Origin: Candidatus Moraniibacteriota bacterium
GTDB taxonomy: Bacteria > Patescibacteriota > Minisyncoccia > Moranbacterales > UBA11712
NCBI GenBank assembly: GCA_030679895.1
Contig: JAUXSN010000039.1
Location: 34,128-98,127 of the forward strand
Direction of reading: 5' to 3'
Length of the DNA: 64,000 nt
Shown here: in pieces, positions 6,409 through 56,935 of the stretch
Position numbering within the stretch: position 1 is the first letter of the stretch
Layout of the letters: each line of letters begins with the position of its first letter
Notes under the pieces: generated by a model
The model's database searches: none
What the model was told of the DNA's origin: nothing
The model's input: the letters and a program-made list of their open reading frames with translations, nothing else
Made by a program: the position numbers and the translations under genes

Positions 6409-6421
6409 TCCAATCTCTTTT

Positions 6422-6447
6422 CTCTCCGCGTGGCAGGGAACGGAGAG
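6422..6447 (+). terminator. Hairpin between the two TasA-like paralogs (ctctccg..cggagag)
   Basis: A 7-bp stem with a 12-nt loop sits 14 nt after the stop and upstream of the RBS (aaggaggtg) of the next gene. This placement suggests a partial terminator or attenuator. Confidence 0.35.
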
Positions 6448-6504
6448 ATGAGAGCGAGGATTTTGAAGCTCGCGAAACAAAAATAAAAGAAAGGAGGTGA
6501 AAAA

Positions 6505-7113: not shown

Positions 7114-7177
7114 TTCCCTTTCAGATCACATCTCTTGAAGGTGTGGTCGATAAAGGAAAATATTATCAAATTAATCC

Positions 7178-7783: not shown

Positions 7784-7788
7784 ATCAG

Positions 7789-9795
7789 ATGAAGCGAATA
7801 ATCAGAAAAAAATTCAGGAGGTTCTGGAGGTCGGTGATCAACAGGCGATTAGTAAAGTACGCCTCTCGTTTCGGTCTGGCCGTTTTCCTGCTGGCAATGG
7901 TTTTGAGTTTTGGAAAAATCCAGGGGACAAATTCTTTTTTCATGGACACGGCGACTGTGGCAGGAAATGAGATTTCAGCCGGATATTGGATTCCGGTTTT
8001 GACGATGACCGTTTCGCCAAAAAATCCCGATGGGCAGAACAATTTTTATGTTTCTCATCCCTGCGTGACACTTGAAGCGAAATTGGGAGGCTCTGTCGCG
8101 TCGCTTTCGGAAGTGGATATATTTTATGAATTCTCGAACGACGGCAATCCGGTTTCGGGCGGAACGAAATACGACGGAACCTGTGTTTCGATTCCCGACG
8201 GAAACCCGACTTATTTTCAGGCGATTGCCGTGAACAAATTGAATTCCGACTGGAAAAGCAATGTCGTGAATGATCAGTTCAAGGTTGACACGCAATGTCC
8301 GGTTGTTGAAATCACAAATCCTGACAGCGGTGACGATTTGAGCGGTTCGGTTGAAATCCGCGGCACTGTGACGGACGCCAATCCGCACCACTACTGGCTG
8401 GTGATCGAAAATTCATCCGGCGCGAAAGTCGCGGGTCCGGGAACGGTGAACGATGCGAATTCTTTCACGGACAAGAAATTTTTCGACTGGGACACGACGG
8501 CGGTTCTGGACGGAGATTATAAAATAAAGCTCGAAGCGCGCGACGCCGCGGGAAACAAATGCCCGAATCAGGCGCCGGTTCTTGCCGATCCGAATGATCC
8601 AAACGATTCAGTTGATTGGATTGATGTGACTGTGGCCAACACGCCGGTTGTTTCTGCCGGTGATGTGATCATCAATGAAGTGATGTGGATGGGAAGCTTT
8701 GCGCATCCACATGATGAATGGATTGAACTCAAGAATACAACCGGACATCCGATAAACGTGAAAAATTGGAATATCGAGGGAGCAGTTGAAGGAAGCGGCG
8801 GGCATCTCGAAATTGCCGGAAACACGGGACACGAAGGCGACGACATGATCATCCCCGCGCACGGATACTTTCTTATTGCAAACTATAACCGAGATTCATC
8901 GGATATAAATGTTGATGTGGATTTGGTGAAAACTAGTATAAGCCTCAATGATGAATATGACGACAACGGCCCGTTGGTTTTGAAAGATACTTCAGATCAA
9001 ACGATTGACGCGACTGCGGCGCCGACAGGACACAGTTGGCCGGCGGGCATTCATGGACTTGTCGTTCCCGGCGGGATATTGCATTGGTCAATGGAAAGAA
9101 ACAACACTCCGTCAAGCGGCTGGCACACCTGCGATCCTACGGCGATGACGCCAGCCCAATTTCTAACGATGAAAAGCTATTGGGATTGGGACGCCTTATT
9201 GTTCAACTGCGGCACGCCGGGGCATGCCAATCTTTCCAAAAACGATCCTTCCAAAAGTGACATTGAAGAATATTTCAATAAAAGTGAAATAAAAGAGGAT
9301 GTGGTTTTGGAGCCGCTTGAGAAAAGTGGAAATGATGGTGTTGAAGCGTTGAAAATAACGAAAAAAGTCCCGATAAAAGTTGTTGGCGCGCCGGATGTTG
9401 CGGAGGGCTTGAAATACAAAATCGACCAGCGGATAAAAAAAGTCAATCTTTCCGGAGATTTTCCGGACAAGGAAATAATCGTAGATTTAGCCAAACTGGG
9501 ACTCATTGAAAAAACCGGCGAGATCAAAATCAGGATCAGCGACCTCGATTTACCGGATGGTGTGGAAGTCGTTTCGCAGAAAGACAACGGGCTGGTGCTT
9601 TTGATTACGGTTGAAAAGCAAAAAGACAAGGTTGCGAAAGTCGCGAAGAAAAACAATAAGTCCGGAAAAAAGTCGAAGAAAAAAGGAAAAGCCGAGCTGA
9701 AACAGGCGGAGCAGGCCGCTCTTCCCGATAGTGGAAAAGAAAGCGGGAGCGGAGACGGCGATCCGAATAACAATAATAAAAATCCCATTACATGA
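7789..9795 (+). CDS. Large secreted protein with SipW-cognate-like signal region and a lamin-tail domain (LTD)
   Basis: An N-terminal TM is followed by GTNSFFMDTATVAGNEISAGYW, which resembles the TasA signal pattern. VIINEVMWMGS...DEWIELKNTTGHPINVKNWNIEG matches the LTD signature. The C-terminus is lysine-rich. Confidence 0.55.
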   Translation: MKRIIRKKFRRFWRSVINRRLVKYASRFGLAVFLLAMVLSFGKIQGTNSFFMDTATVAGNEISAGYWIPVLTMTVSPKNPDGQNNFYVSHPCVTLEAKLGGSVASLSEVDIFYEFSNDGNPVSGGTKYDGTCVSIPDGNPTYFQAIAVNKLNSDWKSNVVNDQFKVDTQCPVVEITNPDSGDDLSGSVEIRGTVTDANPHHYWLVIENSSGAKVAGPGTVNDANSFTDKKFFDWDTTAVLDGDYKIKLEARDAAGNKCPNQAPVLADPNDPNDSVDWIDVTVANTPVVSAGDVIINEVMWMGSFAHPHDEWIELKNTTGHPINVKNWNIEGAVEGSGGHLEIAGNTGHEGDDMIIPAHGYFLIANYNRDSSDINVDVDLVKTSISLNDEYDDNGPLVLKDTSDQTIDATAAPTGHSWPAGIHGLVVPGGILHWSMERNNTPSSGWHTCDPTAMTPAQFLTMKSYWDWDALLFNCGTPGHANLSKNDPSKSDIEEYFNKSEIKEDVVLEPLEKSGNDGVEALKITKKVPIKVVGAPDVAEGLKYKIDQRIKKVNLSGDFPDKEIIVDLAKLGLIEKTGEIKIRISDLDLPDGVEVVSQKDNGLVLLITVEKQKDKVAKVAKKNNKSGKKSKKKGKAELKQAEQAALPDSGKESGSGDGDPNNNNKNPIT

Positions 9796-10871
9796 AAATG
9801 CTTTCAGAAAAAAAATTTGAAAATAGATTTTATATTTTTGGGCTCGCTATCTTGTTTTGTGGGTTGATGTTTTTCAGTTTTTCTGAAAAAGCCGAAGCAA
9901 AAACCGTGACTGACGGAAATCTTGCCATAACTTATAGCGATCCTTTGTTTGCAGTTACGAACGCGGTGCCGGGACAAACCTATTTTTCAGATATGACAGT
10001 GGAAAATTTGGGCGGAGCGGACAGAAAATTCCAATTTGAACTGAATATTGCGGCGAGTTCCAGCAATCTGACGGAAAGGCTTTTTCTCAAAATATACAGC
10101 CTTGACGAAATCGGCAAGGAATATTGCGAATACGGCTGCTTGGCAAACGAGGACATTAAGAGTCTTGACGGAGGCGAATTTGAAATAAAGACAATGCCTG
10201 GAAATTCCACGAAAAATTTCCGCTTCGCGCTGGCTTTTGATCCCGACGCGGGAAATGATTTTCAGAACGTGAGCGCCGGGTTTGATATGAAAATAGGATT
10301 TGAGGATGAATTTCAGGGAGTTACTGGCGGCGGAGGGGGAGGCAATGGAGCTACCGCGGCCGGAACAGCTCCGACGGGATTTTTGACATCGCTGTTTTCT
10401 GCCGTTTCCACGGGGACGACAGCCGGAGCAGAAACAGAAGGAGAAATGCCGCAAGGGCAGGAAGGCGAAGTTAAAGGTGAAGAAACAACGCCGGGACAAG
10501 TCGAGGGTATTTCAGTGTCATCCTGCCAAAGTTGGCCGAAATGGATTTGGGTTTTGATGCTGATTGCTTATTTCGCCGCGTTTTTGTGGCGGACATTTTC
10601 GAATTTATCGGGGCAGATTGAGAAGCGCGAAATGAGATGGGGATGGCAGGCAATTTTGGCAGGCGTGGCGTTTCTTGTCTGGTATTTCTTTGACAAGTGC
10701 CGTGAGTTTCAATGGTTTGTGATCATCGCTCTTGTCGGCGGCGCAGTGGTTTATCTTTTTTATCTTTATTTGTTCAGGAATAATATTCGCGAAGAGCACG
10801 CGGATATAGAAAGCGGATCCGGCCAAGAACCGCCGGAAAATCCAACTGATCAGGCGTCGCCGATTGTATAG
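9792..10871 (+). CDS. Membrane-anchored TasA-like beta-sandwich protein (possible fibre anchor)
   Basis: The start overlaps the upstream stop (ATGA). A signal-like N-terminus is followed by AVTNAVPGQTYFSDMTVENLG (TasA-body-like), a Gly-rich linker and three C-terminal TM helices. Confidence 0.45.
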   Translation: MKMLSEKKFENRFYIFGLAILFCGLMFFSFSEKAEAKTVTDGNLAITYSDPLFAVTNAVPGQTYFSDMTVENLGGADRKFQFELNIAASSSNLTERLFLKIYSLDEIGKEYCEYGCLANEDIKSLDGGEFEIKTMPGNSTKNFRFALAFDPDAGNDFQNVSAGFDMKIGFEDEFQGVTGGGGGGNGATAAGTAPTGFLTSLFSAVSTGTTAGAETEGEMPQGQEGEVKGEETTPGQVEGISVSSCQSWPKWIWVLMLIAYFAAFLWRTFSNLSGQIEKREMRWGWQAILAGVAFLVWYFFDKCREFQWFVIIALVGGAVVYLFYLYLFRNNIREEHADIESGSGQEPPENPTDQASPIV

Positions 10872-15779: not shown

Positions 15780-15877
15780 TAAATAATGTTAGGGTGAATA
15801 GGTGAAAATCTTGATATTTTGGCTCGGACGTGCTATCAAGTGTCTATCAAACCTATGCCGGGGAGGGCAAATTCATT

Positions 15878-16621
15878 ATGAAAGTAAAGGCGGTTTTGGC
15901 CGGATTCTTCGTGATTTGCGGCTTATTGTTCTTTAACAAGCCCGTAATGGCGGGTTATCAACTCAATAAAGGCCAGCTGGAGCGGGAAATCAGCGCGGCT
16001 GGGCTGCGGCTTATCGGCGAAACTGATTATTATGGCGTTCCGTGCCTTGAGGTGGAGCTTCCGCTTGACGAAGCGATTTTTCAGATCTGCCGGAAAGTTC
16101 CGACGCTGAACGCGTTCTATCTTGAAACGCGGGAAGCGATCGCCATTATGAATGGCCTCAATCCTTTTTATCCGCGGAGCCAGCGAGGCCGTCAGTTCGA
16201 TACGGTCAGAAAAACCATCCTGATTCCGCTGGATACGACCATCCAGCCCAAGCTTTTTCCTTCATCCAACGGGAACTTCGCGTCATACGCCCAGGCTATT
16301 TTTGTGGACCGGGAGAAACAAGCGCTGGCTTATTATGAACACGGCCAATTGGTTGCCTGCTTTCCCGTTTCCACGGGCCGTTCCGGAAAGGGAACTCCAG
16401 CCATGCAAGGCTGGATAAAGCTCAAGGACGAGGACCATATTTCTTCAATCTATGACGTCCTTATGCCGTTTTCACTATTACTGGCAAGCCCCTATTTTGT
16501 TCACGCAGGCGTAATGCCGGGGATGCCGGATTCAGCCGGATGCATTAGGATGTTCACGGAGCATGCCAGATGGCTTTTTGACCGAATTGAAAGCCGGAAA
16601 ACGCGGTTCAAAGTGGCTTGA
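15878..16621 (+). CDS. L,D-transpeptidase (YkuD-domain) protein, secreted
   Basis: VSTGRSGKGTP, HAG and SAGCIRM (catalytic Cys) are present. The start was moved to MKVKAVLAGFF (signal peptide), which follows GGAGGG. Confidence 0.65.
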   Translation: MKVKAVLAGFFVICGLLFFNKPVMAGYQLNKGQLEREISAAGLRLIGETDYYGVPCLEVELPLDEAIFQICRKVPTLNAFYLETREAIAIMNGLNPFYPRSQRGRQFDTVRKTILIPLDTTIQPKLFPSSNGNFASYAQAIFVDREKQALAYYEHGQLVACFPVSTGRSGKGTPAMQGWIKLKDEDHISSIYDVLMPFSLLLASPYFVHAGVMPGMPDSAGCIRMFTEHARWLFDRIESRKTRFKVA

Positions 16622-16655
16622 GAACAAAATCTCAATTTTGATCCGGAGGAAACAT

Positions 16656-17399
16656 ATGAAAGCAAGACTGATGATTTTTTTGTTCGCTGTCATCGCAGTA
16701 GCGCTTCCGGCCACCAACTCGCTGGCCGATTACCAACTTGACCCGAACCGGCTCCGGGCGGAACTGGCCGCGGCGGGCATCAAAGCGGGGAAACTGGGGA
16801 AAATCAGCAACATTCCCTATTTGGAAGTAGCCTTTCCAGACGGGAAAAGCGTTGACGATCTCTGCGAGATAATTTCCTCGCTCAAGGAAAATATGCCCGA
16901 GACGCGGTTGGTCATCGCCATTTCCAACCGGCTTCATCCTGATCTTATCCGGGGAAAGGAAGGCGAGCCTTTTACCACCGAACTCCGGTGGCTGAAGGTC
17001 GTTCTGGACACGAAGGTCAAGTCCAAAAATATCTTTCCCGAGTTTGACGAAAAACTGGCCGGGAAAGAGAGTCATTTCATCATTGACTTGTCGAAGCAGG
17101 TTATGACCCTCTATGAATTCGGGCAGATGACGCTCTTTCTTCCTGTGTCAACCGGAAAACCGGGCCGGGAAACGCCCAAAATCAGCGGGGTGGTTCAGGG
17201 AAAGGCCGCGGATCTCTGGATCGAAAAGTATCAGGTCGCGATGTCCTGGGTGGTGAAGCTTTCTCCAACAATATGCGTTTACGGCGGGCTGATGGACGGG
17301 ATGTTCACCACTGCCGGCAGCGTCAAGACCTACCCCAGCGAAGCGGAAAAGCTTTTCCGTCTGGCGAAGGTGGGCGTAACCAGCTTTGAAGTCCGCTAG
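16656..17399 (+). CDS. L,D-transpeptidase-like paralog with Cys-to-Ser substitution at the catalytic position
   Basis: GGAGG lies 6 nt before ATG 16656. The N-termini align with the paralog (DYQLDPNRLRAELAAAGI versus GYQLNKGQLEREISAAGL). VSTGKPGRETP is conserved, but the SAGCIRM position reads TAGSVKT. Confidence 0.55.
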   Translation: MKARLMIFLFAVIAVALPATNSLADYQLDPNRLRAELAAAGIKAGKLGKISNIPYLEVAFPDGKSVDDLCEIISSLKENMPETRLVIAISNRLHPDLIRGKEGEPFTTELRWLKVVLDTKVKSKNIFPEFDEKLAGKESHFIIDLSKQVMTLYEFGQMTLFLPVSTGKPGRETPKISGVVQGKAADLWIEKYQVAMSWVVKLSPTICVYGGLMDGMFTTAGSVKTYPSEAEKLFRLAKVGVTSFEVR

Positions 17400-21280: not shown

Positions 21281-22006
21281 ATGTTGATCAGCGTAAGAAA
21301 TTTGTGCAAGGAATACGACAACGAAGGCGTCAAAACCAAGGCGCTTTGCGGCGTTTCTTTTGATATTGATAAGGACGAATTCGTGGCTATTATGGGCCCG
21401 AGCGGCAGCGGAAAATCAACCCTGATGCAGCTTTTGGGATTTTTGGACCGGCCGTCGGACGGACAATATTTTTTTGAAGGGCGCGACACGAAAGATTTTT
21501 CCGACGATGAGCTGGCATATTTTAGAAATCAAAAAATCGGTTTTGTTTTTCAGTCTTTCAATCTTTTGCCCAGAACGACCGTTTTTGAAAACGTGGAATT
21601 GCCACTCTTATATGACGAGCGGAAGGAATCGTCCGGCCTTATAAACAAGAAAGTCCACGAGGCTTTGAGAGCGGTTGATCTTGAGCATCGCGTCAACAAT
21701 TTATCCAACCAGCTTTCCGGAGGAGAGCAGCAGCGTGTTGCGATTGCGAGAGCTTTAGTCAATGATCCGGCGCTAATCTTGGCCGACGAGCCGACTGGAA
21801 ATCTTGATTCAAAAAACGGTCTTCAGATAATGCGGATTCTCCAAAATCTTAACAGGGATGGTCATACTATCATCATGGTTACCCACGAGACCTATACTTC
21901 CGAACACGCCAAGCGCATCATCCAAATGCTGGACGGGAAAGTGGAAGATGATTATTTGGTGAAGAAGAGAAGGATCGCGGACGGAGAAGAAAGACTTTTG
22001 AAATAA
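21281..22006 (+). CDS. ABC transporter ATP-binding protein (MacB/LolD-type)
   Basis: Walker A (GPSGSGKST), the ABC signature ([15 protein letters not shown]), Walker B ([11 protein letters not shown]) and the H-loop are present. The start is set at [12 protein letters not shown] (21281); the ORF-track start at 21245 lies inside the hairpin repeat. Confidence 0.8.
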
Positions 22007-22150
22007 TTTTCAATTTTCAAGTCTCAATTTACAATCAATTTTCAATGATGCAATTTTCAATTATTAAAAGGCTCCAAAGTTTTGAAATTGATCATTGATA
22101 AATTGAAAATTCATTGAAAATTGTAAATTGGTAATTGAAAATTAAAACGC
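22007..22150. repeat. AT-rich inverted repeat built from caattttcaa / ttgaaaattg units
   Basis: The left arm is tttcaattttcaagtctcaatttacaatcaattttcaatg and the right arm cattgaaaattgtaaattggtaattgaaaatt. They are approximately reverse-complementary across about 140 nt. Confidence 0.5.
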
Positions 22151-23400: not shown

Positions 23401-24696
23401 ATGGGTCTAGATCATAAAACAATTTTCAGATTCGGTATCAGATCTCCCCACGAATGGGCGGTTGTTTTTCGCTTGGCGCTTCGCAATCTGCGCATGAATA
23501 AGATCCGAACCGCGCTTACGGTAATTGGGATTGTAATTGGGATTATGTCGGTGATAATAGTAATGGCCGGCGGAACCGGCCTCAAAAACTATGTTTTGGG
23601 GCAGGTCGATGTTTTTGGAACGGATTATATCCAGGTGGAGGTGAAGGTTCCCGGTGTTTCGGAAATGTCGTCGGAAAATATTTCCGGCAGAGGAACGGGT
23701 CTTGCCATCACAACGCTCAAAGAAAAAGATGCCGAAGCGGTCGCAAAAATTCCCAATGTCAGAACTTGGAGCGCGGGAAATATGGACCAGGAGCTGGTAA
23801 GCTATAGCAGCGTGAACAAAAGAGTGATGATCTTCGGCGTGAATCCCGCGTATGTCGAAATTGACCGCCAGATCCAGCCGGTTGAAGGAACCTTTTTCTC
23901 CGAGAGCGATGAAGCCGGAGCCGCCCAGGTGGCGGTTATCGGCGCCGGGGTTAAAAAAAGTTTTTTCGGAGAAGGGGATGCCGCGGGAAAAAATATCAAA
24001 ATAAAGGACCAAAATTATCGGGTCGTCGGAGTGCTCAAAGAAAGGGGAGCCGGCGGATTTTTCAATTTTGACGATGTTGTCTATATTCCCTTCAAAACGC
24101 TCAATAAAAAACTGCTCGGAATTGACTATGCCCAGTTCATCACGTTTAAGGTCAAAGATACGGCGCGCATGGAGGAAACAGCCGTTGATATCCGGGAAAC
24201 GATGCGGCGCGAGCATGATATAACTGATCCCGCGAAAGAAGATTTCATAGTTATGTCCGCGGCGGAAGGGAAAGATATGATCGACAAAGTTTTTGGGACG
24301 ATCAACTATCTGCTTTTGGCTCTCACCTCCATCTCTCTTTTGGTTGGGGGAGTTGGTATTATGAATGTCATGTATGTGGCCGTCACCGAGCGGACGCGCG
24401 AGATCGGGCTTCGCAAAGCGCTCGGCGCGACAAACTCGGGAGTTCTGCGGCAATTTCTTTTTGAAGCCGTTATTGTGACATTCATCGGCGGAGCGGTTGG
24501 AATTCTTTTCGGGGTGATTTCGACCTATCTTCTTAATAATTTTTTGATCCGGCTCGGATATATGCTTCAATTTTCCGTTCCCGCGAAATCCATCATCACC
24601 GCGGTCGGATTTTCCGTTTTCACCGGCCTCATTTTCGGCATCTATCCCGCGTGGAAAGCCTCGCAACTCTCGCCAATCGAAGCGTTGCGAAAATAA
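23401..24696 (+). CDS. ABC transporter permease, MacB/FtsX family (second copy)
   Basis: Same architecture as the first permease. The FtsX signature reads LLVGGVGIMNVMYVAVTERTREIGLRKALGA. Confidence 0.8.
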   Translation: MGLDHKTIFRFGIRSPHEWAVVFRLALRNLRMNKIRTALTVIGIVIGIMSVIIVMAGGTGLKNYVLGQVDVFGTDYIQVEVKVPGVSEMSSENISGRGTGLAITTLKEKDAEAVAKIPNVRTWSAGNMDQELVSYSSVNKRVMIFGVNPAYVEIDRQIQPVEGTFFSESDEAGAAQVAVIGAGVKKSFFGEGDAAGKNIKIKDQNYRVVGVLKERGAGGFFNFDDVVYIPFKTLNKKLLGIDYAQFITFKVKDTARMEETAVDIRETMRREHDITDPAKEDFIVMSAAEGKDMIDKVFGTINYLLLALTSISLLVGGVGIMNVMYVAVTERTREIGLRKALGATNSGVLRQFLFEAVIVTFIGGAVGILFGVISTYLLNNFLIRLGYMLQFSVPAKSIITAVGFSVFTGLIFGIYPAWKASQLSPIEALRK

Positions 24697-24736
24697 GCTT
24701 CCATCCTAAGATCCGATCTTAGGATGGAATAAATCT

Positions 24737-25402
24737 ATGCGAAAAGAGCGATTTTTTGAAGATCAATATTACCACATATTTAACAGAGGAACAGACAAGA
24801 GAAAAATATTTCTGGATGATTTTGATTATCGCCGCTTCTTACTTTCTATGCGGCTTATGAATGACGAAAAAGACGGTTTAATGATCCGATGGAGAGATTA
24901 TAAAAAAACTTATTCCAGTTCGACGGTCGAAGCTTTCCTAAGATCGGATCTTAGGAAAAGAAATTCACTGGTTGAAATTGTTTGTTTTTCTCTTCTTCCT
25001 AACCACTATCATTTCATTCTGAAACAGCTGGCAAGAAATGGAATTGAAAAGTTTATGCAAAGAATTGGAATAGGATATACGATGTATTTTAACAAAAAAT
25101 ATGATCGCAGCGGAGTTTTGTTTCAGGGAAAATGCAAATCTAGTCTTATCAAAGCGACTCATCACCTTCTTTACCTTTCTGTCTATGTGAATTGCAACGC
25201 GGAAGTGCACGGTATCGCGAAAGCTGAAAATTATCGTTGGAGCAGTTTTTCTAATTCTATAAATAGAAGCAAGGATAATATCTGCAACGGAAAAGTGATA
25301 TTTGATAATTTCAAGGAAAGTGAAGATTATAAAATTTACGCAAAGGAAAATGTAGAAGCGATGAAACAAAAAAAAGAGGACGAGAAATTAGTCTTGGAAT
25401 AG
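24737..25402 (+). CDS. REP-associated tyrosine transposase (RAYT; IS200-like HuH Y1 transposase, COG1943-like)
   Basis: YYHIFNRGTDKRKIFLDDFDYRRFL matches the COG1943 N-terminus. LLPNHYHFIL carries the HuH motif. The downstream GYTMYFNKKYDRSGVLFQGKCKS contains the candidate catalytic Tyr and an RxG..Q motif. Confidence 0.7.
   Translation: MRKERFFEDQYYHIFNRGTDKRKIFLDDFDYRRFLLSMRLMNDEKDGLMIRWRDYKKTYSSSTVEAFLRSDLRKRNSLVEIVCFSLLPNHYHFILKQLARNGIEKFMQRIGIGYTMYFNKKYDRSGVLFQGKCKSSLIKATHHLLYLSVYVNCNAEVHGIAKAENYRWSSFSNSINRSKDNICNGKVIFDNFKESEDYKIYAKENVEAMKQKKEDEKLVLE
24937..24955. repeat. REP palindrome cctaagatcggatcttagg located in-frame inside the RAYT ORF
   Basis: The 25-nt string agctttcctaagatcggatcttagg is identical to the copy at 25401-25425. 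It encodes AFLRSDLRK within an extra segment of about 25 aa, relative to typical COG1943 proteins, between the N-terminal motif and HuH. Confidence 0.65.
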
Positions 25403-25608
25403 CTTTCCTAAGATCGGATCTTAGGATGGAATTTGCCAACAAAAAAAGCCTTCTTTCGAAGCGCTTGAAAAATAAAGATGTGATCCGGAAGAGCCTCATG
25501 GCTCTCCCGGATCGGAACTGCAAGACAGGAAGGATTTTGAGATGTTATCTCTGCCCGGAAGTCGGTTCTCCGGAAAGATTCCTTACCGTCTTTTACTTCG
25601 GCAGGGTG

Positions 25609-26034
25609 TTACTGCAGCATGACCTCGAAGGGAACCGCCGTCGCTGTCAGGAGAGCGTAGGCGGGGGTGCCCCGGGAGGTCGCGATGATGGCCATGCAGG
25701 TCCGGGGATCAAAGATGGCGCCTTTTGCCTTCTTAGCATCGGCGAAATCCTGGATTTCCCAGGGGATCCCCTTGCAGAACTCGGCGGGCAGAGCCTGATC
25801 GGCGCGCTTTTTTTGCCCATAGTCCGCTTCCGCCAGCAGGGTATTGTTGGCCGGATGGAAATGGTAGACGCCACGTGGCGACCCCAAATTTACCTTGATC
25901 GTGAACTCATCCATCCGCTGCCCCGCCGGCATTGCCAGCATACGTGGGCTTTTTTCTTTTCCGCACTGGGGGACGTAACCCATGAGCTCGATGGGTGCCG
26001 CCCTCGGGTCTGCCAAAGGGTGCTGGTTGAACAT
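25609..26034 (-). CDS. Hypothetical protein encoded in a GC-rich (foreign-looking) segment
   Basis: A 141-aa ORF with a GGAGG RBS 7 nt upstream of its ATG (minus strand). Its codon usage and GC are clearly higher than in neighbouring genes. I recognised no family. Confidence 0.4.
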   Translation of the reverse strand: MFNQHPLADPRAAPIELMGYVPQCGKEKSPRMLAMPAGQRMDEFTIKVNLGSPRGVYHFHPANNTLLAEADYGQKKRADQALPAEFCKGIPWEIQDFADAKKAKGAIFDPRTCMAIIATSRGTPAYALLTATAVPFEVMLQ

Positions 26035-26847
26035 AGAAACCTCCGTTAAGCGGTGGTTGTTTTTCGCGCAAGTGAAGGCGGGACACGCTAGCCTTCTCTC
26101 GCACAGCCATAGCCGCGTACATATCGGGGAATAGATTTTTTAGGTACTTCTCCTCCTTTGTGATGGGTTGATATTTGTCCCCGTCTGCCATCTCTTTAGA
26201 AAATTATAACAAAAATAAAAAAAATACACAATTATTTCCCGTATAGAACCATTTGGAACTCTAAAATTAAAAACCCCAGGCAAGTGAGCTTGGATGGAAT
26301 GCGGGGCGGCATCCACAAGACATCACTCGCCTGGGGCCAGCCAGGAGGAAGGTGAAACATGGCCTCCGAGGTAAGTTTTTTCTAATATCGATCTTAGAAC
26401 AGCCTCGAACGCATCTAAAAATTTTAGACCTTTCTGCTTCATAAAGAACAAATATTGATCATGTAAAAAGGATCCACGGGCGGTCTAGGCTCCAAAACAA
26501 AAAAATGTATTGGTGGCGCGGAGTTGAAGCGTCGTTTGGCGAATCGCTCGACCATGCATGGTGTCGGGTTCTCCCCGGAGCAACTCCGACCATGAAATTG
26601 CCCAAAAAGGCGCAAATAATGGCCTTCTTAGCCGGACGGCGCATTTTCACCCTCCGCGTTGCCGTTTCTCCTTTTCCACCCGTGGATTTTGGATATTAAC
26701 AAAATTTTGTAAACTTGTCAAATTTAAAAAAGCCCAGGAAACTGCTATTGACGGGGGATAACATTCCTGCTACAATTTAAAGTTAAAAAATTAAGAAGAA
26801 AGCGTATTACTAAACATATAAATATTTACCTTATTTAAAGCAAATTT

Positions 26848-28239
26848 ATGGCTAATGAAGTAAAAACTTTGCGCGAAAAAGAAGGAAAGAAAACGTGGAA
26901 ATTTTGGTTGGCCTTTTGGTTTATTGCGGCCATTTTGCTTTTTTCCTGGTATGTATTTTTGCAAATAAGAAACAAAAATATTCAAAATCTGAAATCTTTG
27001 ACAAGTTTTTTGCCGGTAGGGAGCGAACGAAGAAATGAACTCACGGTTCTGGCTGATATATATGACAAGGCCGGCGGATTTGATCGCGAACAAACTTTTC
27101 TCATTCTTTTCCAAAACGACATGGAGCTTCGCCCGGGCGGCGGCTTTATCGGGTCATTTGGAATTCTCAAAGCAAAAAATGGAAAGGTGGGCGATATTCA
27201 GATTCACGATACGGGCGTTTTTGACGGCCGCGTTCCTGACACAGAGCAACCCCCGTATCCCATGGCGGAAATGCTCCATATAAAAAGCTGGCAGATGAGA
27301 GATTCCAATTGGTCGCCTGATTTTCGCGTGAACGCCGAAAAGGCGGAATATTTTTATAAGCTGGGACAAGGCGGTGAAAATTTTGACGGAGTGATCGCTA
27401 TCAATACCAAGGTTCTGAATTCCATCCTTGAAATCACAGGGCCGGTCAAAATCGCCGATTATCCCGGTGAATATAACGATGAAACGGCCATTCTTCAGCT
27501 TGAATACCAGGTGGAGAAAGGCTATCAGGAACAGGGAATCATGAAGGGAGAGCGGAAAAGCGTCATGAAAGACATGGCTAAAGTCTTGATTGAAAAAATA
27601 CATAACTTGAATGTTTCGCAGCAGTTGGAGCTGGCGAAAAAAATAGAGGAAAATCTCAAACAAAAGAATATCCAGATGTTTTTCAAGGACGAAAGTCTGC
27701 AAGCGGAAGCGGAAGAAATAAACTGGGCGGGGCGGGTGAAAAATTATAAGGGAGATTATCTGATGGTTGTTGACGCGAATCTCAATTCCTTGAAGAGCGA
27801 TCTTTGCATAAAACGGGAAATTAAATACGAAGTCGACTTGAGCGCTGAAAAACCGCAAGCAGAGCTCGCGCTCACCTATGATCATACTTGCCGCACACGC
27901 GACTGGATGACGGCCAATTATAACGATTGGCTGCGGGTTTATATTCCGGACGGATCGTGGCTGGCGGATTCCAGTGTTCCTCAAGAAAATCTTCGCTTTG
28001 GTAACGATTTAGGCAAGAAAGTTGTCGGTGTGCCGGTTTATGTTGAAATCGGAAAAAAAGAAACTATCACCTTGAAATATGATTTGCCTGCTGAACTAAA
28101 AAACAATAATTACAGTTTGTTTATCCAAAAACAATCCGGATCAGGGGAGGTGCCGGTCAGCATTTCGGTGAAAAAAGCGGACGGATCAGTCAGTGAAATA
28201 AACGAGGTGCTGCTGGAAGACAAGATGTTCAGTTTCTAG
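26848..28239 (+). CDS. DUF4012-family protein (membrane-anchored, polysaccharide-locus associated)
   Basis: An N-terminal TM is followed by FLILFQNDMELRPGGGFIGSFGILKAKNGKV. This matches the characteristic LxQNNAELRPTGGFIGSY motif of DUF4012 from memory. Confidence 0.6.
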   Translation: MANEVKTLREKEGKKTWKFWLAFWFIAAILLFSWYVFLQIRNKNIQNLKSLTSFLPVGSERRNELTVLADIYDKAGGFDREQTFLILFQNDMELRPGGGFIGSFGILKAKNGKVGDIQIHDTGVFDGRVPDTEQPPYPMAEMLHIKSWQMRDSNWSPDFRVNAEKAEYFYKLGQGGENFDGVIAINTKVLNSILEITGPVKIADYPGEYNDETAILQLEYQVEKGYQEQGIMKGERKSVMKDMAKVLIEKIHNLNVSQQLELAKKIEENLKQKNIQMFFKDESLQAEAEEINWAGRVKNYKGDYLMVVDANLNSLKSDLCIKREIKYEVDLSAEKPQAELALTYDHTCRTRDWMTANYNDWLRVYIPDGSWLADSSVPQENLRFGNDLGKKVVGVPVYVEIGKKETITLKYDLPAELKNNNYSLFIQKQSGSGEVPVSISVKKADGSVSEINEVLLEDKMFSF

Positions 28240-28313
28240 AGCCTGACTTCGGGATTGACAATTTCTCCGGGATGATGTATAATTATCGGTTAATTTAATA
28301 AATAAGCATTACT

Positions 28314-29036
28314 ATGAATTATTCTCAATTTAGGTCCATTTTATCAAGAAAAATAGGTCTTATGCTGCTGGCCGGCCTTCTTCTCGCGGCTATTTCGTTT
28401 TGGGGAATAATGCTTCTTTCTCCGCGCTATCAATCTAATTTCGACGTTCTGGTGATTCAAAACCAGGAAAGTTTTGTTGATTCCTATACGCTTGCCAAAT
28501 CAACGGAGCATTTTTCAAAGTTGCTTTCGGAGAGCGTCTATACGGAAACTTTTCTCAATAAAGTCATAGAAGGCGATCCGGAACTTTCGAAAATTTTGCC
28601 GATTGAAAGAGAAGATCGCATGAAAGCCTGGGGGAAAATGGTTCAAACTTCCATCAATGCCGAGTTGGGAATGATTCACCTCAAAGTTTTGTCGAATGAC
28701 AAAGGACAGGTTGAAAGATTGTCGAAAACGGTCGCGAGCGTCCTTGCGGAAAATAACAATTTGTTCATCAGCGAAAACCAAAAAATTGAAGTGCGCATGA
28801 TAAACGCGCCGCTGATCAAGAATAATCCCGGAATGAATATGCTGTCTTTCACTGTCGTGGCTTCTTTCCTTATCGGGGTACTTCTGGTGTTTATTGCCTC
28901 ATTTTACAAAAATTTCATTGATCAGGAGAAATCAAAAGTTGATAGAACGGCGGAAATAAATAATTGGAATCGAACCGTGGCGGAGGATGACCTTGGAAAT
29001 ATAATTGACGCTGAAACCGGAGAAATTATTTTGTGA
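28314..29036 (+). CDS. Polysaccharide chain-length determinant / CpsC-YveK (Wzz-family) protein
   Basis: The protein has the two-TM topology of CpsC-like proteins, about 230 aa long. The N-terminal TM (LMLLAGLLLAAISFWGIML) is followed by PRYQS, and the C-terminal TM reads MLSFTVVASFLIGVLLVFIASF. Confidence 0.55.
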   Translation: MNYSQFRSILSRKIGLMLLAGLLLAAISFWGIMLLSPRYQSNFDVLVIQNQESFVDSYTLAKSTEHFSKLLSESVYTETFLNKVIEGDPELSKILPIEREDRMKAWGKMVQTSINAELGMIHLKVLSNDKGQVERLSKTVASVLAENNNLFISENQKIEVRMINAPLIKNNPGMNMLSFTVVASFLIGVLLVFIASFYKNFIDQEKSKVDRTAEINNWNRTVAEDDLGNIIDAETGEIIL

Positions 29037-29268
29037 TGATTGCCGGCTTGGAACTTTTTCCAAGCCTTTAAATCCTCATAAATGAGGTGGAAACAGTTTT
29101 TTTAAAAACTGAATACGTGAATAAATGAACAAATTCTCCCCGCCAAAGTGGCGGAGGAGGATTGAGTATAAGTCAAACCATGGCTCCGCCTGCGGCGGAT
29201 GCCTAAAAAATTTCTTGCGACTCGTTAGTTTTTCCAAAAAGAAAACAAAAGCAAGGTTTTTCGCAGAA

Positions 29269-29341
29269 AATTCAGTGGGAGCTCACTGACTGCGAAAGCG
29301 GAATTTTTCTATTCAGATATTCAGTGGGAGCTCGCTGACTG
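29269..29341. promoter_or_regulatory. Two 23-bp direct repeats (aattcagtgggagctcactgactg / attcagtgggagctcgctgactg) upstream of the GC-rich gene 29410
   Basis: The copies differ by one mismatch and are spaced about 50 bp centre to centre. Each contains a cagtGGgagctcactg dyad and looks like an operator or transcription-factor site. They lie 70-140 nt upstream of an ATG preceded by aaggag. Confidence 0.45.
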
Positions 29342-29409
29342 TATAGGACTTTCAAGCCGAGTTTTGTTCAGGAAAACAAAAAGAGAAGCGAGAACAAAGG
29401 AGTTCGACC

Positions 29410-31746
29410 ATGGTCATCAGAAAGTTTTTAGTAACTGCGCTGGTTGGCCTTTCGCTGTTTTTCTTCAGCGGCCAAGCGCAAAGCGCAGACCCGATCCCCG
29501 CTGAAGAGTCCGGTGAGAAGACGGGTTGGTATAGGTGCTCCGGCGGCGGAGGAGAGGCTCCAGAAGCCGCTTCCGCCGAAAAATCCGATCCGAGTGTGAT
29601 CCGCGAGTGGAAAGACGCCCGCGACGGCCACACTTATCAGGAACGGAGAAACCAGGAGAGCGGGCATCTTTACACGGCTCGCAAACCCAACAAGTGGGAA
29701 AGCGCTAAGAACGAGGACAGAGAAGACGGGAAGTTTTGGAAATCCCCGTTCTGTAGTCCTCGTGACTCCTGGTCGGCCAAAAAACCGCCAAAAGAGTCGA
29801 AAAAGGTTACGGCGGTCAAGGGTTTCATCCCCACTCCGGCACTCAAGTTTGCCAAGGGGAAAACCATGAAAGTCGTGGCGGTTAATGCCAATTTGGGCCG
29901 GATCGAGGATGGTTTTGTCCTGCCGGCTGGCGGCGACCAAAATGGGAAAGTCCCCGTGGTAGTCTGCTTCAATTCCGAACTCCCCGGCTCTGGCTGGAAA
30001 GTCGTGAGTGGCGACCGCTATTTCAACAACGCGCTTGGCGGCAGCAAGCGAGGCGAGTTGATTGTTTGGGGACTAGACGGCGCAAGCTATGCCAAGATGC
30101 AGGGCGGGATGTTCGAGGAAAGAGACCCTGCTTATATGGCATTGGTCGCCGAAACTTATGGCAGCGACTTGGATAAGCTCGAAAGAGCATCCCTGATCAA
30201 CAAGGGACAGCTGGATGGGGTTATTCAGGCTTGCGGTCTCAAGAAGTTTGATGTCCCGATGGACGGCATCCGCTACGCGGCCGATCGCGGTGAACTGGTT
30301 CAGGCTTGCAAAAAGGCGGATCGGCGCCGGGGTTACATTCGCTTTGCGGATGATGGTGGTCTAACCATTAGTCCTGAGCCGATCGGAATGATTATGAGTG
30401 CTGGATCGGCATTATTCACGTCCACGGTCCTGCGTAACCACAATACCCCTTGCCTCTCGACTGAGAGCAATGGCGTGGAGCTTTTCGAAAAGGATTTTGC
30501 CTTCTGGCAATCTTTCCGGAAAGACGAAAAAGTCGGTGCATACCCAAATCCGGCTCAAGGCGCAAGAAGATATACCTCCCAAGGAACCGAAGCTCCCGTC
30601 AATAACGGCGGTGAGGTTTCTTACCAGCAGTTCGCGGCTGGTTTGGGCGGGGGATACAGCGACTACCTTGACCTCCCCGGACGCACCCGCTGGTGGGTGA
30701 ACCCGAAGCGGGTGGAGATTCCGATCGGCGGCGGAATAAGCCGCGATCCGAATTTCCGCGGACGGTTTGCATGGCATAATATCGCCTTGCGGCCGTTTGA
30801 TTTCGAGCTGTCCCCGGATGCTTTTCTCGGGGTTGGCCCGGCGGCGAAGTTTGGCTGGTATAAGTATCAGGTACTGCCATCTAGATTTTCGGGGCACGGC
30901 CAAAGCCGATCCTTTGGGATTTGGCCCGAGCTGATAACCAGAGAATCCTGGGGCGGGACGGATACGACCATCGGTTTGCTTTTCGGCCGCCGATGGGAAA
31001 AAGGCGACTTTAATTTTTCCGCTAGCCGTCGTTTTGGCACAATCGATGCCGCGACGGAGTGGTGGTGGAATCCGGTTGCCAGTGGAAAATGGGGAAAGCT
31101 CCTCCCCGGCGCGAAGGCTTTTGCGCTCTGGGAAACTGACGGGTTCTTTCATGCAGGTTTGATGCCGGTGATCTACCAATCCCCGTGCGATGACCTGTTC
31201 AAGATCTCCGCCGGTCCGGCTTTCATGCGTTTCCGCCATGGGCCCATGGGAGGCGGGGTGAAGGTTCAGGCTGAAGTTTTCGGCGGCGTGTATCTGTCTT
31301 ACGGCCGCTATTTCGGCAAACGGAATTTCTTTATGGGTTCTGTCGACCCCTATCGCGTATACTGGACGCTTCAGAATGCGATGGTGGAATGCGGAACCAA
31401 GGAGGTTCCCTGGGACGTGCCAGAAATCGAGCCGATTGTTCCACAAATTTCACCTCCGGCTCCGGTAATCCCAGCCGCGCCGAAGTTGATCTCTCCTCCT
31501 CCGGCGATTGAAACACCGCCGGTTAAAATAAAAAAACTCAAGCTGCGTAAAAAGCAGTTAAGGGAGCGGTGCCTAGTGACACAGCCGGAAGCGCCGATCC
31601 AGGTTCCAAAACCGCCCGAAAAAGGGTGGCAGGAGACCGTAAAGGAGTGGTGGATTTCTCTCACTGCTTCCCCTTCGGCGGATCCGAACAAAACCGAGGC
31701 TAAGCCGGTGGAAACACCCGCAACAGCGCCTCCAAAAACGATGTGA
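29410..31746 (+). CDS. Large secreted protein of unknown function encoded in a GC-rich segment; Pro-rich C-terminal tail
   Basis: A signal peptide (LVTALVGLSLFFFSGQAQSA) is followed by an aromatic/Gly-rich central region and a C-terminus with PPAPVIPAAPKLISPPPAIETPP. The coding GC is far above the window norm, and many overlapping antisense ORFs appear, as expected in high-GC DNA. Confidence 0.55.
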   Translation: MVIRKFLVTALVGLSLFFFSGQAQSADPIPAEESGEKTGWYRCSGGGGEAPEAASAEKSDPSVIREWKDARDGHTYQERRNQESGHLYTARKPNKWESAKNEDREDGKFWKSPFCSPRDSWSAKKPPKESKKVTAVKGFIPTPALKFAKGKTMKVVAVNANLGRIEDGFVLPAGGDQNGKVPVVVCFNSELPGSGWKVVSGDRYFNNALGGSKRGELIVWGLDGASYAKMQGGMFEERDPAYMALVAETYGSDLDKLERASLINKGQLDGVIQACGLKKFDVPMDGIRYAADRGELVQACKKADRRRGYIRFADDGGLTISPEPIGMIMSAGSALFTSTVLRNHNTPCLSTESNGVELFEKDFAFWQSFRKDEKVGAYPNPAQGARRYTSQGTEAPVNNGGEVSYQQFAAGLGGGYSDYLDLPGRTRWWVNPKRVEIPIGGGISRDPNFRGRFAWHNIALRPFDFELSPDAFLGVGPAAKFGWYKYQVLPSRFSGHGQSRSFGIWPELITRESWGGTDTTIGLLFGRRWEKGDFNFSASRRFGTIDAATEWWWNPVASGKWGKLLPGAKAFALWETDGFFHAGLMPVIYQSPCDDLFKISAGPAFMRFRHGPMGGGVKVQAEVFGGVYLSYGRYFGKRNFFMGSVDPYRVYWTLQNAMVECGTKEVPWDVPEIEPIVPQISPPAPVIPAAPKLISPPPAIETPPVKIKKLKLRKKQLRERCLVTQPEAPIQVPKPPEKGWQETVKEWWISLTASPSADPNKTEAKPVETPATAPPKTM

Positions 31747-31836
31747 ACCCCGTTCCGCGCCAGAAGCAAAAAAGCTGACGGCGCGGGACACAACTTCCCT
31801 GCGTGAAGTGGGGATAACACTGAAAAGGAGTGAATT

Positions 31837-32208
31837 ATGAATGCGAAGAGATTGGCAAACCGGATGTTGTTTCTCATTTTGGTCCTGGCCATTGCGGTTC
31901 CGGCCACGGCTCTGGCGGCAACCTATCTGCCTCACGGCGCCACGATTACGGCGACCGTTTCCGGAGACACTGCCACTATCACCGTTACTGGGATCTCCGG
32001 AGCTTCCGTGGAGCGCTATTATTGGGAGCGTATTGACAAGTCTCCCGGGATGACCATGGACCTCAAGCAAGGCCGGCGATTCCAGGTGATGTCCGGGGGC
32101 AAGTACCTCCTGATCACTCCTGAAATGGCCTCGGGCGGGCCCTATAAGCTCATCGGAGTCGGCATCGACTGCTCCAATGAAAAGGGCTGCTGTCTCATCG
32201 TTAAGTAA
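31837..32208 (+). CDS. Small secreted protein (GC-rich segment)
   Basis: A signal peptide (MLFLILVLAIAVPATALAA) is followed by 123 aa with paired Cys near the C-terminus. A GGAG lies upstream. Confidence 0.45.
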   Translation: MNAKRLANRMLFLILVLAIAVPATALAATYLPHGATITATVSGDTATITVTGISGASVERYYWERIDKSPGMTMDLKQGRRFQVMSGGKYLLITPEMASGGPYKLIGVGIDCSNEKGCCLIVK

Positions 32209-32280
32209 AATTCCGGCCGGACCCCGGCCATCATCGCCCCCATAAGGAGGTAACAAAGGGGGCAAAGAAGTAGAAGTATT

Positions 32281-32334
32281 GAGCCGTATCAGAATGTGAT
32301 CTGCCATCGCGCAGACATGTATCTGATACGGCTC
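32281..32334. terminator. Long hairpin between convergent genes (gagccgtatcaga ... tctgatacggctc)
   Basis: A 13-bp perfect stem encloses a 28-nt loop and sits between the 3' ends of 31837-32208 (+) and 32388-32876 (-). A second small hairpin, agcgagc..gctcgct, lies at 32364-32386. Confidence 0.55.
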
Positions 32335-32387
32335 TTAATTTTGGAAAAATTATATAAAAAATAAGCGAGCCGGATTTCAGCTCGCTG

Positions 32388-32876
32388 TCAGTCCCCGGAA
32401 CGTGTCCCGTGGATGATAATTTTGGTCTTGCCCTCCTCCGCCCAGTCGAACAGCCGGACAATCTCGGGCCGCGTGACATGGACGCATCCGTTGGTCGCGA
32501 GCGCGCTTCTTCTCTTTTTGGGATTTAGGTGCTCTTTTGGAGGCACTTCTCCCTCATGAATGGCCTTGCGGTCGCCATTCCAAATGAAGAAAAGAGAATA
32601 GGGCATCCAAGTGTTGTGGGTCTTGGAAAAATAGCGCCGTCTTTTTTGGACAACAACATATTCTCCCGGATCGGTTATTTTGACGCCATCACCCGTAATG
32701 ACGTTAAAATCGAAGAGCTTTATCCCGTTTTCGTAGGCTGTTCCCGTCTGGGTCAACTGGTTGATGAAAATCACCTTGCCTTCTTTTGGAATTGAAGGTG
32801 AATTTTCCCCGAAAGCCGGCAAAAATCCGACAAGTATGAATAAAAGAACAAAGGCTATATTCATGATTTCCCCCAA
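32388..32876 (-). CDS. L,D-transpeptidase (YkuD-domain) protein
   Basis: An N-terminal signal/TM is followed by HG...GCVHV, the catalytic His/Cys pair of the YkuD fold. Confidence 0.6.
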   Translation of the reverse strand: MGEIMNIAFVLLFILVGFLPAFGENSPSIPKEGKVIFINQLTQTGTAYENGIKLFDFNVITGDGVKITDPGEYVVVQKRRRYFSKTHNTWMPYSLFFIWNGDRKAIHEGEVPPKEHLNPKKRRSALATNGCVHVTRPEIVRLFDWAEEGKTKIIIHGTRSGD

Positions 32877-33137
32877 AGATCATAAGATATCCCCATATTT
32901 GAGGTTTGGAAATTATATTACTATATATAGGTCCAGTCAACAAAAACGCTCCTGGCTTATTAAAAATAACAAAATAATGCTTTATATAAGCCATAAAAAC
33001 ACTTGACAAAATTATTGCAAAATGATATTATACGAAGTTAAAACAAAAAGTTAACCTCTCGAAAAATGCGCTTCCATAAGCCCATTTTCCGGGAGATAAA
33101 CCTATCTTTCCCGATATCTTAAAAAAAAGGTGGTTCT

Positions 33138-33647
33138 ATGAAAAAAGGTATTTTTCTGCTGGCGTTGACGACCTTTATTCTTTTCTCCGGCAATGCTCAG
33201 GCCAAGGGAAAAGCGGTTGGCCGATTGACTGCTCTCGTCGCTACGGAGTCTCTCCGGGATAAGGGCTACAATTTTACAGGAGGTCACTGGTTTACCGAAC
33301 AGCGATCTTTCCAAAAAAAAGCCAAGGGCGGCGGTAATATAATTGTTATCTTGGGAGCAGACGAGGAAGGAAAAGAAGTCAAGTCATTTTTCATCTCCCT
33401 ACCCTTATCTGCTCAGGATGAAGTCAAGGAAGCTGTACTGACTGCGGTTTTGAGCCTGGCTTCTGCAAGAGGAGCGAAAAGTCCGGATCTGATTGAGGTC
33501 GGGACCGATTTGCTTCTTGATCTCTGGCCCAAAAAGATTGCAAAGTATTGGGGGACCAATACTAGCGGCCTAAAATTGAAAGGTTGCCAGATCGCAGTTT
33601 CGCTGAGAAATATCGGCGGCGGCAAAGTCCAAATCCAGATCAACTGA
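33138..33647 (+). CDS. Hypothetical secreted protein
   Basis: A signal peptide (LLALTTFILFSGNAQA) and an AAGGTGG RBS are present. No motif recognised. Confidence 0.45.
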   Translation: MKKGIFLLALTTFILFSGNAQAKGKAVGRLTALVATESLRDKGYNFTGGHWFTEQRSFQKKAKGGGNIIVILGADEEGKEVKSFFISLPLSAQDEVKEAVLTAVLSLASARGAKSPDLIEVGTDLLLDLWPKKIAKYWGTNTSGLKLKGCQIAVSLRNIGGGKVQIQIN

Positions 33648-33745
33648 CTGGCCGCGCGTCCGGGAGCATTCCTCTCTCGAGGAAAGGGGAATGCTTCGCT
33701 TTACAAAGTGCGTGAAAATATCATTCATTTTGTGAGAGCGAATAT

Positions 33746-54144: not shown

Positions 54145-54161
54145 AATTAAAACATAAATAT

Positions 54162-54851: not shown

Positions 54852-54853
54852 AA

Positions 54854-56934: not shown

Positions 56935-56935
56935 T

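Follow-up and report, generated by a model that had tools for sequence, protein, structure and literature searches.

An envelope polysaccharide locus of a Moraniibacteriota bacterium carries a GC-rich gene pair, probably native, with apparently exchanged alleles

Introduction

Surface-protein genes can take the form of cassettes that are exchanged by homologous recombination: the surface-layer (S-layer) cassette of Clostridioides difficile lies beside the cell-wall glycan locus, and the sap genes of Campylobacter fetus have a conserved 5′ region and N-terminal module. Here we describe a gene pair that resembles these cassettes in several respects, found in a 64,000-nucleotide stretch (hereafter the window) of a Candidatus Moraniibacteriota bacterium (assembly GCA_030679895.1, contig JAUXSN010000039.1). 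The two genes, which we call BIG and small, encode secreted proteins of 778 and 123 amino acids (aa), and lie in a segment at 29400-32400 that is unusually rich in guanine plus cytosine (GC). An earlier note on this DNA proposed that the segment had been inserted into an otherwise low-GC polysaccharide locus, either from a different organism, such as the host of an epibiont, or through a chimeric assembly join. Our analysis indicates that it is best explained, with a probability of about 0.72, as a native, vertically conserved GC-rich module of the envelope polysaccharide locus of a Moraniibacteriota-like Parcubacteria clade, in which alleles have been swapped; foreign origin and assembly chimerism are effectively refuted.

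Two further groups of proteins and cells bear on what the pair might do. Cells of the Candidate Phyla Radiation (CPR), viewed with cryo-TEM (cryogenic transmission electron microscopy), possess an S-layer and no outer membrane (bioRxiv 10.1101/2020.05.14.094862), and the same envelope has been reported elsewhere (PMC12102498). In diderm Terrabacteria, as two published accounts set out (PMC10628300, PMC9388160), OmpM/SlpA proteins join an N-terminal, wall-binding SLH domain to a C-terminal β-barrel.

Results

BIG and small hold a constant position in related genomes

The features of the segment, in window coordinates, are as follows.

29262..29409, + strand: BIG leader, with two tandem hairpins, a third predicted stem and the Shine-Dalgarno sequence AAGGAG at 29397-29402
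29410..31746, + strand: BIG, 778-aa secreted protein of an unannotated, Parcubacteria-restricted family
29410..29723, + strand: signal peptide and conserved N-terminal module of BIG, to about aa 105, with the recombination breakpoint at the 3′ end
29724..31512, + strand: variable body of BIG, allele class A
31513..31572, + strand: conserved basic motif of BIG (aa 702-721), within the Pro-rich tail (aa 670-778)
31837..32208, + strand: small, 123-aa secreted, β-rich partner protein, always directly downstream of BIG, with a conserved signal peptide and a variable body

This two-gene layout (open reading frames, ORFs, at 29410-31746 and 31837-32208) bears out the earlier description, as does its setting: DUF4012 and Wzz/CpsC-like genes lie upstream of BIG, and small is followed by a YkuD gene on the minus strand and then by Wzy_C and GT4 genes. 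The further claim that the segment interrupts a functionally coherent locus does not hold. Nine further Parcubacteria/Moraniibacteriota contigs, obtained from separate samples and with separate assemblers, carry BIG and small at this position (L001, L002, L003, L004, L008, L009, L011, L012 and the contig of P0006). The order common to these loci is MacB-type ABC transporter, DUF4012, Wzz-like, BIG, small, (YkuD), Wzy, GT4, TIG-domain protein, GT4 and rfb, and every BIG family member with a readable contig shares this context. Because the same genes are found in the same position with similar composition in relatives, the segment is a constant part of the locus and not an insertion; this synteny comparison had been suggested in the note itself, which named shared genes of similar composition as the outcome that would contradict its reading.

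The BIG family is small, clade-restricted and unannotated. Four homologues were recovered from a collection of 5.8 billion proteins, those with a named source being Parcubacteria or Moraniibacteriota, and an exhaustive profile search of 1.84 billion representative proteins yielded 11 family members; word-index searches with alignments contributed P0006 as the sole addition among the matches listed. All homologues found belong to Parcubacteria or to unlabelled metagenomes. A scan of a genome-contig collection returned only loci already known, scans of metagenome and viral contigs returned no BIG relatives, and no phage relatives appeared in phage collections or PHROGs. BIG has no match in Pfam, NCBIfam, PHROGs or PDB sequences, and profile searches of the PDB were empty; for small, the matches in Pfam, NCBIfam and PHROGs amounted to noise on its signal peptide.

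Assembly support extends across the segment. An independent Logan assembly (SRR13727519; L010) encodes the exact window protein and is 100% identical to the window over 6931 bp (25190-32120) with no mismatch; this stretch includes the GC boundary on the left as well as the junction of BIG and small. On the right, the boundary lies in sequence that is conserved in L001 (32199-32292) and L002 (32214-32349, 90%), and in L001, L002, L003 and L008 both boundaries are spanned by collinear genes and conserved intergenic islands. A chimeric join that brought in DNA of another population would explain the abrupt change in composition, the single observation in its favor, but the left boundary coincides precisely with a start codon that follows a conserved leader, and the independent assembly crosses it. 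We consider its probability negligible.

GC richness is a property of the two genes

The abrupt change in composition previously placed at about 29400 is real. The interval 29400-32400 has a GC content of 0.553, against a mean of 0.426 in the 3-kb windows that do not overlap it (standard deviation 0.033, maximum 0.482; z = 3.9), and it is the highest-GC 3-kb stretch of the window. In a sliding-window run with 300-nt windows, GC lies at 0.38-0.44 at 28850-29449 and at 0.51-0.59 across 29300-32300, and has fallen to 0.32 by 32750-33049. BIG reaches 0.557 (0.574, 0.485 and 0.612 at first, second and third codon positions, or GC1, GC2 and GC3) and small 0.565 (GC3 0.702), against gene means in the window of 0.438 for GC and 0.474 for GC3. 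In four loci, two-fold degenerate codons have C/(C+T) ratios of 0.48-0.59 versus 0.40-0.41 in background genes, and G/(G+A) ratios of 0.47-0.62 versus 0.33-0.39; at four-fold sites, C is up and A is down. These values substantiate the claim that the two genes differ from their neighbors in GC content and codon usage.

This richness belongs to BIG and small themselves. The rise begins at the BIG start codon, with the upstream intergenic DNA at only 0.418; downstream, the spacer that follows BIG (0.544) and the one that follows small (0.469) exceed the window mean, and a value of 0.307 is reached only in the spacer beyond YkuD. Across the eight loci measured, BIG has a GC content of 0.538-0.571 (GC3 0.55-0.68) and small one of 0.524-0.594 (GC3 0.65-0.80), with flanking genes at 0.39-0.48. 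Every lineage and allele class that was examined shows this richness, despite a body identity of 23-39%. Much of the excess in BIG follows from its protein sequence (10.7% Gly, 8.6% Ala, 8.1% Pro, 5.9% Arg, 3.2% Trp): amino-acid composition combined with background codon use predicts a GC content of 0.514, compared with 0.436 for an average gene and the 0.557 observed, such that about 65% of the excess comes from amino-acid composition and about 35% from codon choice.

Since the preference for G or C at third positions persists across alleles whose synonymous sites are expected to be saturated, we infer that some process actively keeps GC3 high. This could be selection on codons in envelope genes with abundant expression, or GC-biased gene conversion at a recombination hotspot; no reference high-expression genes, ribosomal ones included, were identified among the window proteins scanned. 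The next-highest GC3 values of the window (0.58 and 0.66) belong to two adjacent genes for YkuD L,D-transpeptidases, at 15830-17399, and thus high GC3 is not unique to the pair. Structured RNA was dropped as a source of GC, Rfam having no match at E ≤ 1 over 24600-33200. The long antisense ORFs described before are indeed present in the segment. Their break points differ between orthologues, which marks them as by-products of composition; an overlapping antisense gene was rejected on this ground.

A recent acquisition of a block of about 3 kb from a higher-GC organism, for example an epibiont's host, would account for the sharp GC step (z = 3.9), for codon usage richer in G and C than that of the neighbors, and for the presence within the block of a part whose history is unlike that of its flanks. 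The remaining evidence is difficult to reconcile with such an event. The Karlin dinucleotide signature, which is normalized for base composition, is ordinary (δ* of 56 for the segment against a window mean of 57, rank 51 of 123), so that the segment deviates in GC and GC3 but not in this native signature. Its site is occupied in all nine other contigs, the eight loci measured share its GC excess, its homologues with a named source are all from the same group, and the intergenic DNA upstream of it is not GC-rich. No mobility gene, tRNA or repeat pair was found at the segment borders; the nearest tRNA is at least 18.9 kb away, and an IS200-like gene at 24737-25402, 4 kb upstream, is a separate insertion. 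An origin of the segment in a different organism is accordingly very improbable, and the position of the recombination boundary, described below, argues further against it.

Lineages have exchanged the variable body of BIG

Alignment of the window to its closest relative, L003, shows 94% DNA identity over 26757-29723, up to about codon 105 of BIG, beyond which the two are unalignable. Similarity returns only as patches at 31495-31557 (the basic motif), 31836-31916 (the signal peptide of small) and 32214-32307; a patch at 31495-31607 is found between otherwise unalignable BIG alleles. Protein identities of the window to L003, L002 and L001, in that order, are listed below.

DUF4012: 96%, 84%, 73%
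Wzz-like: 94%, 78%, 69%
BIG, first 100 aa: 85%, 78%, 67%
BIG, aa 106-680: 29%, 29%, 80%

Over aa 106-680, the window protein is 28-29% identical to those of L002, L003 and L004, 39% to that of L008 and 23-24% to that of L011. The bodies form at least four allele classes that share 23-39% identity: class A (the window, L001 and, more distantly, P0006), class B (L002, L003, L004 and P0005), class C (L008) and class D (L011). The window therefore shares its class with a distant relative, whereas its three closest relatives belong to class B. Identity within class B is 86-90%, near that of the backbone genes, which indicates that variation lies between discrete alleles and is not the outcome of continuous hypermutation. 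A diversity-generating retroelement was rejected as well, no template-variable repeat pair being present within 24-34 kb. Together, these alignments show that lineages have swapped body classes through homologous recombination, for which the conserved module and the intergenic islands are the likely anchors.

The variable zone runs from about 29724 to 33700, and includes the following features downstream of small.

32209..32387, no strand: region of convergent terminators separating small (+) from YkuD (−), better conserved than the genes on either side
32388..32876, − strand: YkuD-type L,D-transpeptidase (Pfam YkuD, E = 1.7e-13)
32964..33123, no strand: conserved divergent-promoter island between YkuD (−) and the 169-aa gene (+)
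33138..33647, + strand: gene for a 169-aa secreted protein, at the right edge of the variable zone, before Wzy

Among seven aligned orthologues of small, the window is closest to L011 (61%) and L002 to L008 (71%); because the best relative of small differs from that of BIG, its mosaic history is independent. The window YkuD is 42-48% identical to its orthologues in L001, L002 and L008, which are 70-75% identical to each other, and this divergent allele places YkuD in the same variable zone. The 169-aa gene is 44% identical to its counterpart in L001 and 24% to that in L008, and is absent from L002; its protein has no Pfam or NCBIfam match. Conserved islands at 32214-32349 and 32964-33123 interrupt the zone.

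The GC boundary (29410) and the recombination boundary (29723) do not coincide. The N-terminal module, which follows the backbone, is as GC-rich (0.568) as the swapped body (0.558), so GC content is not the mark of a transferred piece. The suggestion that the segment has a different history from its surroundings thus survives in part: the body of BIG has been exchanged among related Parcubacteria, but the exchange neither begins at the GC boundary nor involves foreign DNA.

The conserved setting of the pair raises a different possibility, namely that BIG and small work specifically in the polysaccharide pathway, whether as a conduit for export, as an anchor or lectin for the glycan, or as a depolymerase (by analogy to the Wza or Wzi of capsule loci), and are not an independent surface antigen. 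Their position between the Wzz-like co-polymerase and Wzy is invariant in all loci, and Wzi, a β-barrel lectin, is likewise encoded in capsule loci and allelically variable. Against this proposal, no similarity to Poly_export, Wzi, or glycoside hydrolase or lyase families was seen, and the body class does not track the polysaccharide enzymes: the window and L001 share class A, yet their Wzy and GT4a proteins are each 65% identical, and the window and L002 differ in class, yet these proteins are 72% and 66% identical, respectively. We regard a dedicated pathway role as rather unlikely.

Leader and spacers contain conserved elements

The BIG leader contains hairpins at 29270-29292 and 29319-29341 (direct repeat D4), and is 80-83% identical to the leaders of L002 and L004 and 94% identical to that of L003. 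RNAalifold, applied to a small sample of five leader sequences, predicts 38 pairs, nine of them with compensatory changes, which suggests that the leader may have a regulatory or stabilizing role as an mRNA stabilizer, attenuator or operator. The sequence AAGGAG lies 7 bases before the ATG of BIG and 6 bases before that of small. The strength of this Shine-Dalgarno sequence, the structured and conserved leader, and the raised GC3 are indirect hints that the two proteins may be abundant.

Terminator-like hairpins downstream of small end at 32230 and 32386, with a long hairpin at about 32282-32335; the stretch 32214-32349 is 90% identical to L002. The island at 32964-33123 is 81-91% identical to L001, L002 and L008, and holds promoter-like sites at 32940-32912 (−) and 33003-33031 (+) that each match 11 of 12 positions. 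Both intergenic islands (81-91%) are more conserved than the coding sequence around them (YkuD, 42-48%), and may serve as recombination anchors.

BIG combines a conserved N-terminal module with a predicted β-barrel

The signal peptide, aromatic/Gly-rich region and Pro-rich tail that were ascribed to BIG are confirmed by its composition. The protein starts with MVIRKFLVTALVGLSLFFFSGQAQSA/DPIP, a typical signal peptide (aa 1-26, probably cleaved at AQS/A), and its N-terminal module is near-invariant over aa 11-103 of the alignment. In aa 430-665, Gly makes up 13.6% and Phe, Trp and Tyr together 17.4% of residues. The Pro-rich tail (22% Pro, 12% Lys) carries the basic motif TPPVKIKKxxxxKKxLRxRC at aa 702-721, with invariant columns from P703 to C721. 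Six family members end in P-[KN]-x-M (31729-31743 in the window, and P0002, P0003, P0005, P0007 and P0012), even though their tails otherwise vary in length; this ending could be a processing or sorting signal. No transmembrane anchor, LPXTG motif or known domain was found in the sequence of BIG.

An AlphaFold model of BIG built from a five-sequence alignment had a predicted local distance difference test score (pLDDT) of 30.6; with 12 sequences, the mean pLDDT rose to 56.8, with a predicted template-modeling score (pTM) of 0.51. This model is confident at aa 60-95, in an α/β domain that spans aa 120-300 (pLDDT 70-86) and in a β meander that spans aa 439-645 (pLDDT 62-88), with a low-confidence linker at aa 300-438. 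The meander is predicted to comprise 12-14 long β strands (nt 30724-31344) followed by a helix at aa 647-662. In Foldseek searches of the PDB, the top matches are all outer-membrane barrels: AIDA-I (4mee, E = 6e-5), EspP, Hbp, NalP, BrkA, intimin, invasin, OmpG and designed transmembrane barrels, with E = 6e-5 to 4e-3 and template-modeling (TM) scores to the targets of 0.37-0.48. For a 12-stranded barrel, E ranges from 6e-5 to 1e-3. A search of the viral structure library BFVD again returned autotransporter and porin barrels. The variable body is therefore predicted, with moderate confidence, to contain an outer-membrane-like β-barrel; since CPR bacteria are reported to lack an outer membrane, we treat this barrel as a fold prediction and not as family membership.

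Taken literally, the model would make BIG a true membrane-embedded barrel of the autotransporter or porin kind, residing either in an outer lipid layer of this clade or in the outer membrane of a host, where it might dock the cell or open a channel. In addition to the Foldseek matches in both libraries, the Gly/aromatic-rich composition, a strand ending in GVYLSYGRYF that resembles an outer-membrane β-signal, an allelic diversity that fits an interface with another organism, and the attachment of CPR cells to Gram-negative hosts are all consistent with such a barrel. If it were real, a host-inserted barrel would be the epibiont's docking or feeding pore, and allele swapping would track host range. 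On the other side, model confidence is moderate and TM-scores do not exceed 0.48; there is no profile similarity to autotransporter domains, and no match to PF03797; the hydrophobic face of the strands is weak; and the barrel ends at about aa 645, with a helix and a 110-aa tail after it, instead of lying at the extreme C-terminus with a β-signal. Given also that CPR cells are reported without an outer membrane, we judge a membrane-embedded barrel improbable.

Other compositional anomalies in the window

Several regions outside the segment also depart from the local background. The IS200/Y1-transposase-like gene at 24737-25402 (Pfam E = 2.5e-4, just under the curated cut-off), within 24699-25432, is bracketed by palindromic repeats resembling repetitive extragenic palindromic (REP) elements, TCCTAAGATC(C/G)GATCTTAGGA, at 24699-24730, 24936-24962 and 25404-25432, an arrangement that matches a REP-associated tyrosine transposase. 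The spacer at 24.7-26.8 kb is an insertion relative to L002, in which MacB and DUF4012 are 468 bp apart; L001 carries an unrelated 231-aa gene (GC 0.61) in the same spacer. Beside the transposase-like gene, at 25500-26200, is a second, smaller GC-rich patch (0.57-0.63) with a 207-aa ORF at 25426-26049 (+) and overlapping minus-strand ORFs. Searches of Pfam, NCBIfam, PHROGs and Rfam gave no match for this patch, and L001, L002 and L008 contain nothing equivalent; unlike the BIG segment, it could really have been imported.

The genes for a type III restriction-modification pair, an N6_N4 DNA methylase (55366-56934, E = 3e-43) and a ResIII helicase-nuclease (56936-59197), lie with three small unannotated genes in a low-GC island at 53671-59197 (genes 0.27-0.39, against the gene mean of 0.438). 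The case for horizontal acquisition is stronger for this island than for the GC-rich segment. The most deviant dinucleotide signature of the window (δ* 100-128 versus the mean of 57) is found at 1-10000, which encodes a GT2/chitin-synthase-like enzyme, a 1094-aa fusion of heparinase II/III and polysaccharide deacetylase, a camelysin-like protein, a signal peptidase and a lamin-tail-domain protein. In L001, a 117-aa gene for a 23S_rRNA_IVP/bAvd-like four-helix bundle (21747-22100, GC 0.285) lies between rfbC and rfbB; it is not at that position in the window, L002 or L008.

Discussion

Conserved position, shared composition and a native dinucleotide signature together favor a vertically inherited module whose alleles have been swapped. 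Building on this reading, we consider it rather probable that the two proteins make up an envelope structure exposed at the surface, for instance an S-layer component, a pore component or an adhesin; the signs of surface location are a signal peptide and the lack of any transmembrane anchor. The N-terminal module and the basic, Pro-rich tail would hold BIG to the wall or the polysaccharide, and the variable body would be exposed and diversified under pressure from phages or host recognition.

Several observations weigh against this interpretation. The surface exposure and abundance of BIG and small are predictions from sequence, and the wall anchors SLH, CWB2, LysM and LPXTG were not detected in either protein with Pfam and NCBIfam. 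The AlphaFold model has moderate confidence and is built on 12 sequences, and its barrel finds no counterpart at the sequence level: Pfam gave nothing at E ≤ 10 for eight members, hhalign returned a probability of 0.1% against the β-domains of E. coli Ag43, YfaL and YcgV, and hydrophobic/polar alternation in the predicted strands is weak. Homology to autotransporters was rejected: this profile-profile test was negative, and so was a mid-domain control. Finally, the allele class of BIG shows no covariation with Wzy and GT4 downstream, which makes a specific link to the polysaccharide no more than a possibility, and the raised GC3 fits codon selection and GC-biased gene conversion alike.

For genome scanning, the locus illustrates that a sharp GC step alone is not evidence of foreign DNA or of a bad join; here, the step is stable across at least four allele classes and falls 300 bp short of the true breakpoint. 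For CPR biology, it adds an unannotated, clade-restricted secreted family, always found inside an envelope polysaccharide locus, that is a concrete candidate to account for structures seen in cryo-TEM images, either the S-layer or those of host contact. The outer-membrane-like barrel, predicted in a lineage presumed to have no outer membrane, is testable, and a GC3 that stays 0.1-0.3 above that of neighboring genes, despite only 23-39% shared residues, offers a natural case for parting codon selection from GC-biased gene conversion. A variable surface-protein locus is an ordinary kind of phenomenon, here in an unannotated family; what is unusual is a compositional island kept across deeply divergent alleles, together with a barrel predicted in a lineage presumed to lack an outer membrane.

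Comparison with known systems

Like horizontally acquired islands, the segment has a sharp compositional step and deviating codon usage. Unlike genomic islands, it is present at the same site in all relatives instead of being patchily distributed, has a native signature and is bordered by no integrase, tRNA or repeats.

An up-and-down meander of 12-14 long strands with an adjacent helix, as predicted for BIG, would match the 12-stranded translocator barrels of autotransporters and inverse autotransporters (AIDA-I 4mee, EspP 2qom, Hbp 3aeh, NalP 1uyn, BrkA 3qq2, intimin 4e1s). In BIG, by contrast, the predicted barrel lies internally, with a helix and the Pro-rich tail after it, sequence and profile similarity are absent, and the organism group is reported to have no outer membrane. 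In the published accounts cited above, OmpM/SlpA proteins have the same layout of N-terminal module, spacer and barrel as is predicted for BIG; BIG differs from the proteins described there in having no SLH domain, a barrel much smaller than that of SlpA and no expected outer membrane.

Recombining surface-protein cassettes provide the closest parallel. BIG has no homology to C. difficile SlpA or C. fetus Sap or to a known anchoring domain, and the known wall-anchoring domain by which a classical S-layer protein would be recognized is found in neither BIG nor small; BIG is at most a candidate for lattice formation. In contrast to C. fetus, the 64-kb window holds no paralogues or silent cassettes of BIG, and switching within a cell in the C. 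fetus style is hence not supported. As in the C. difficile and C. fetus cassettes, however, a conserved N-terminal module and conserved flanks, here with a sharp breakpoint, enclose a divergent body that falls into discrete classes and lies beside envelope glycan genes, and the relationships among alleles contradict the genome backbone.

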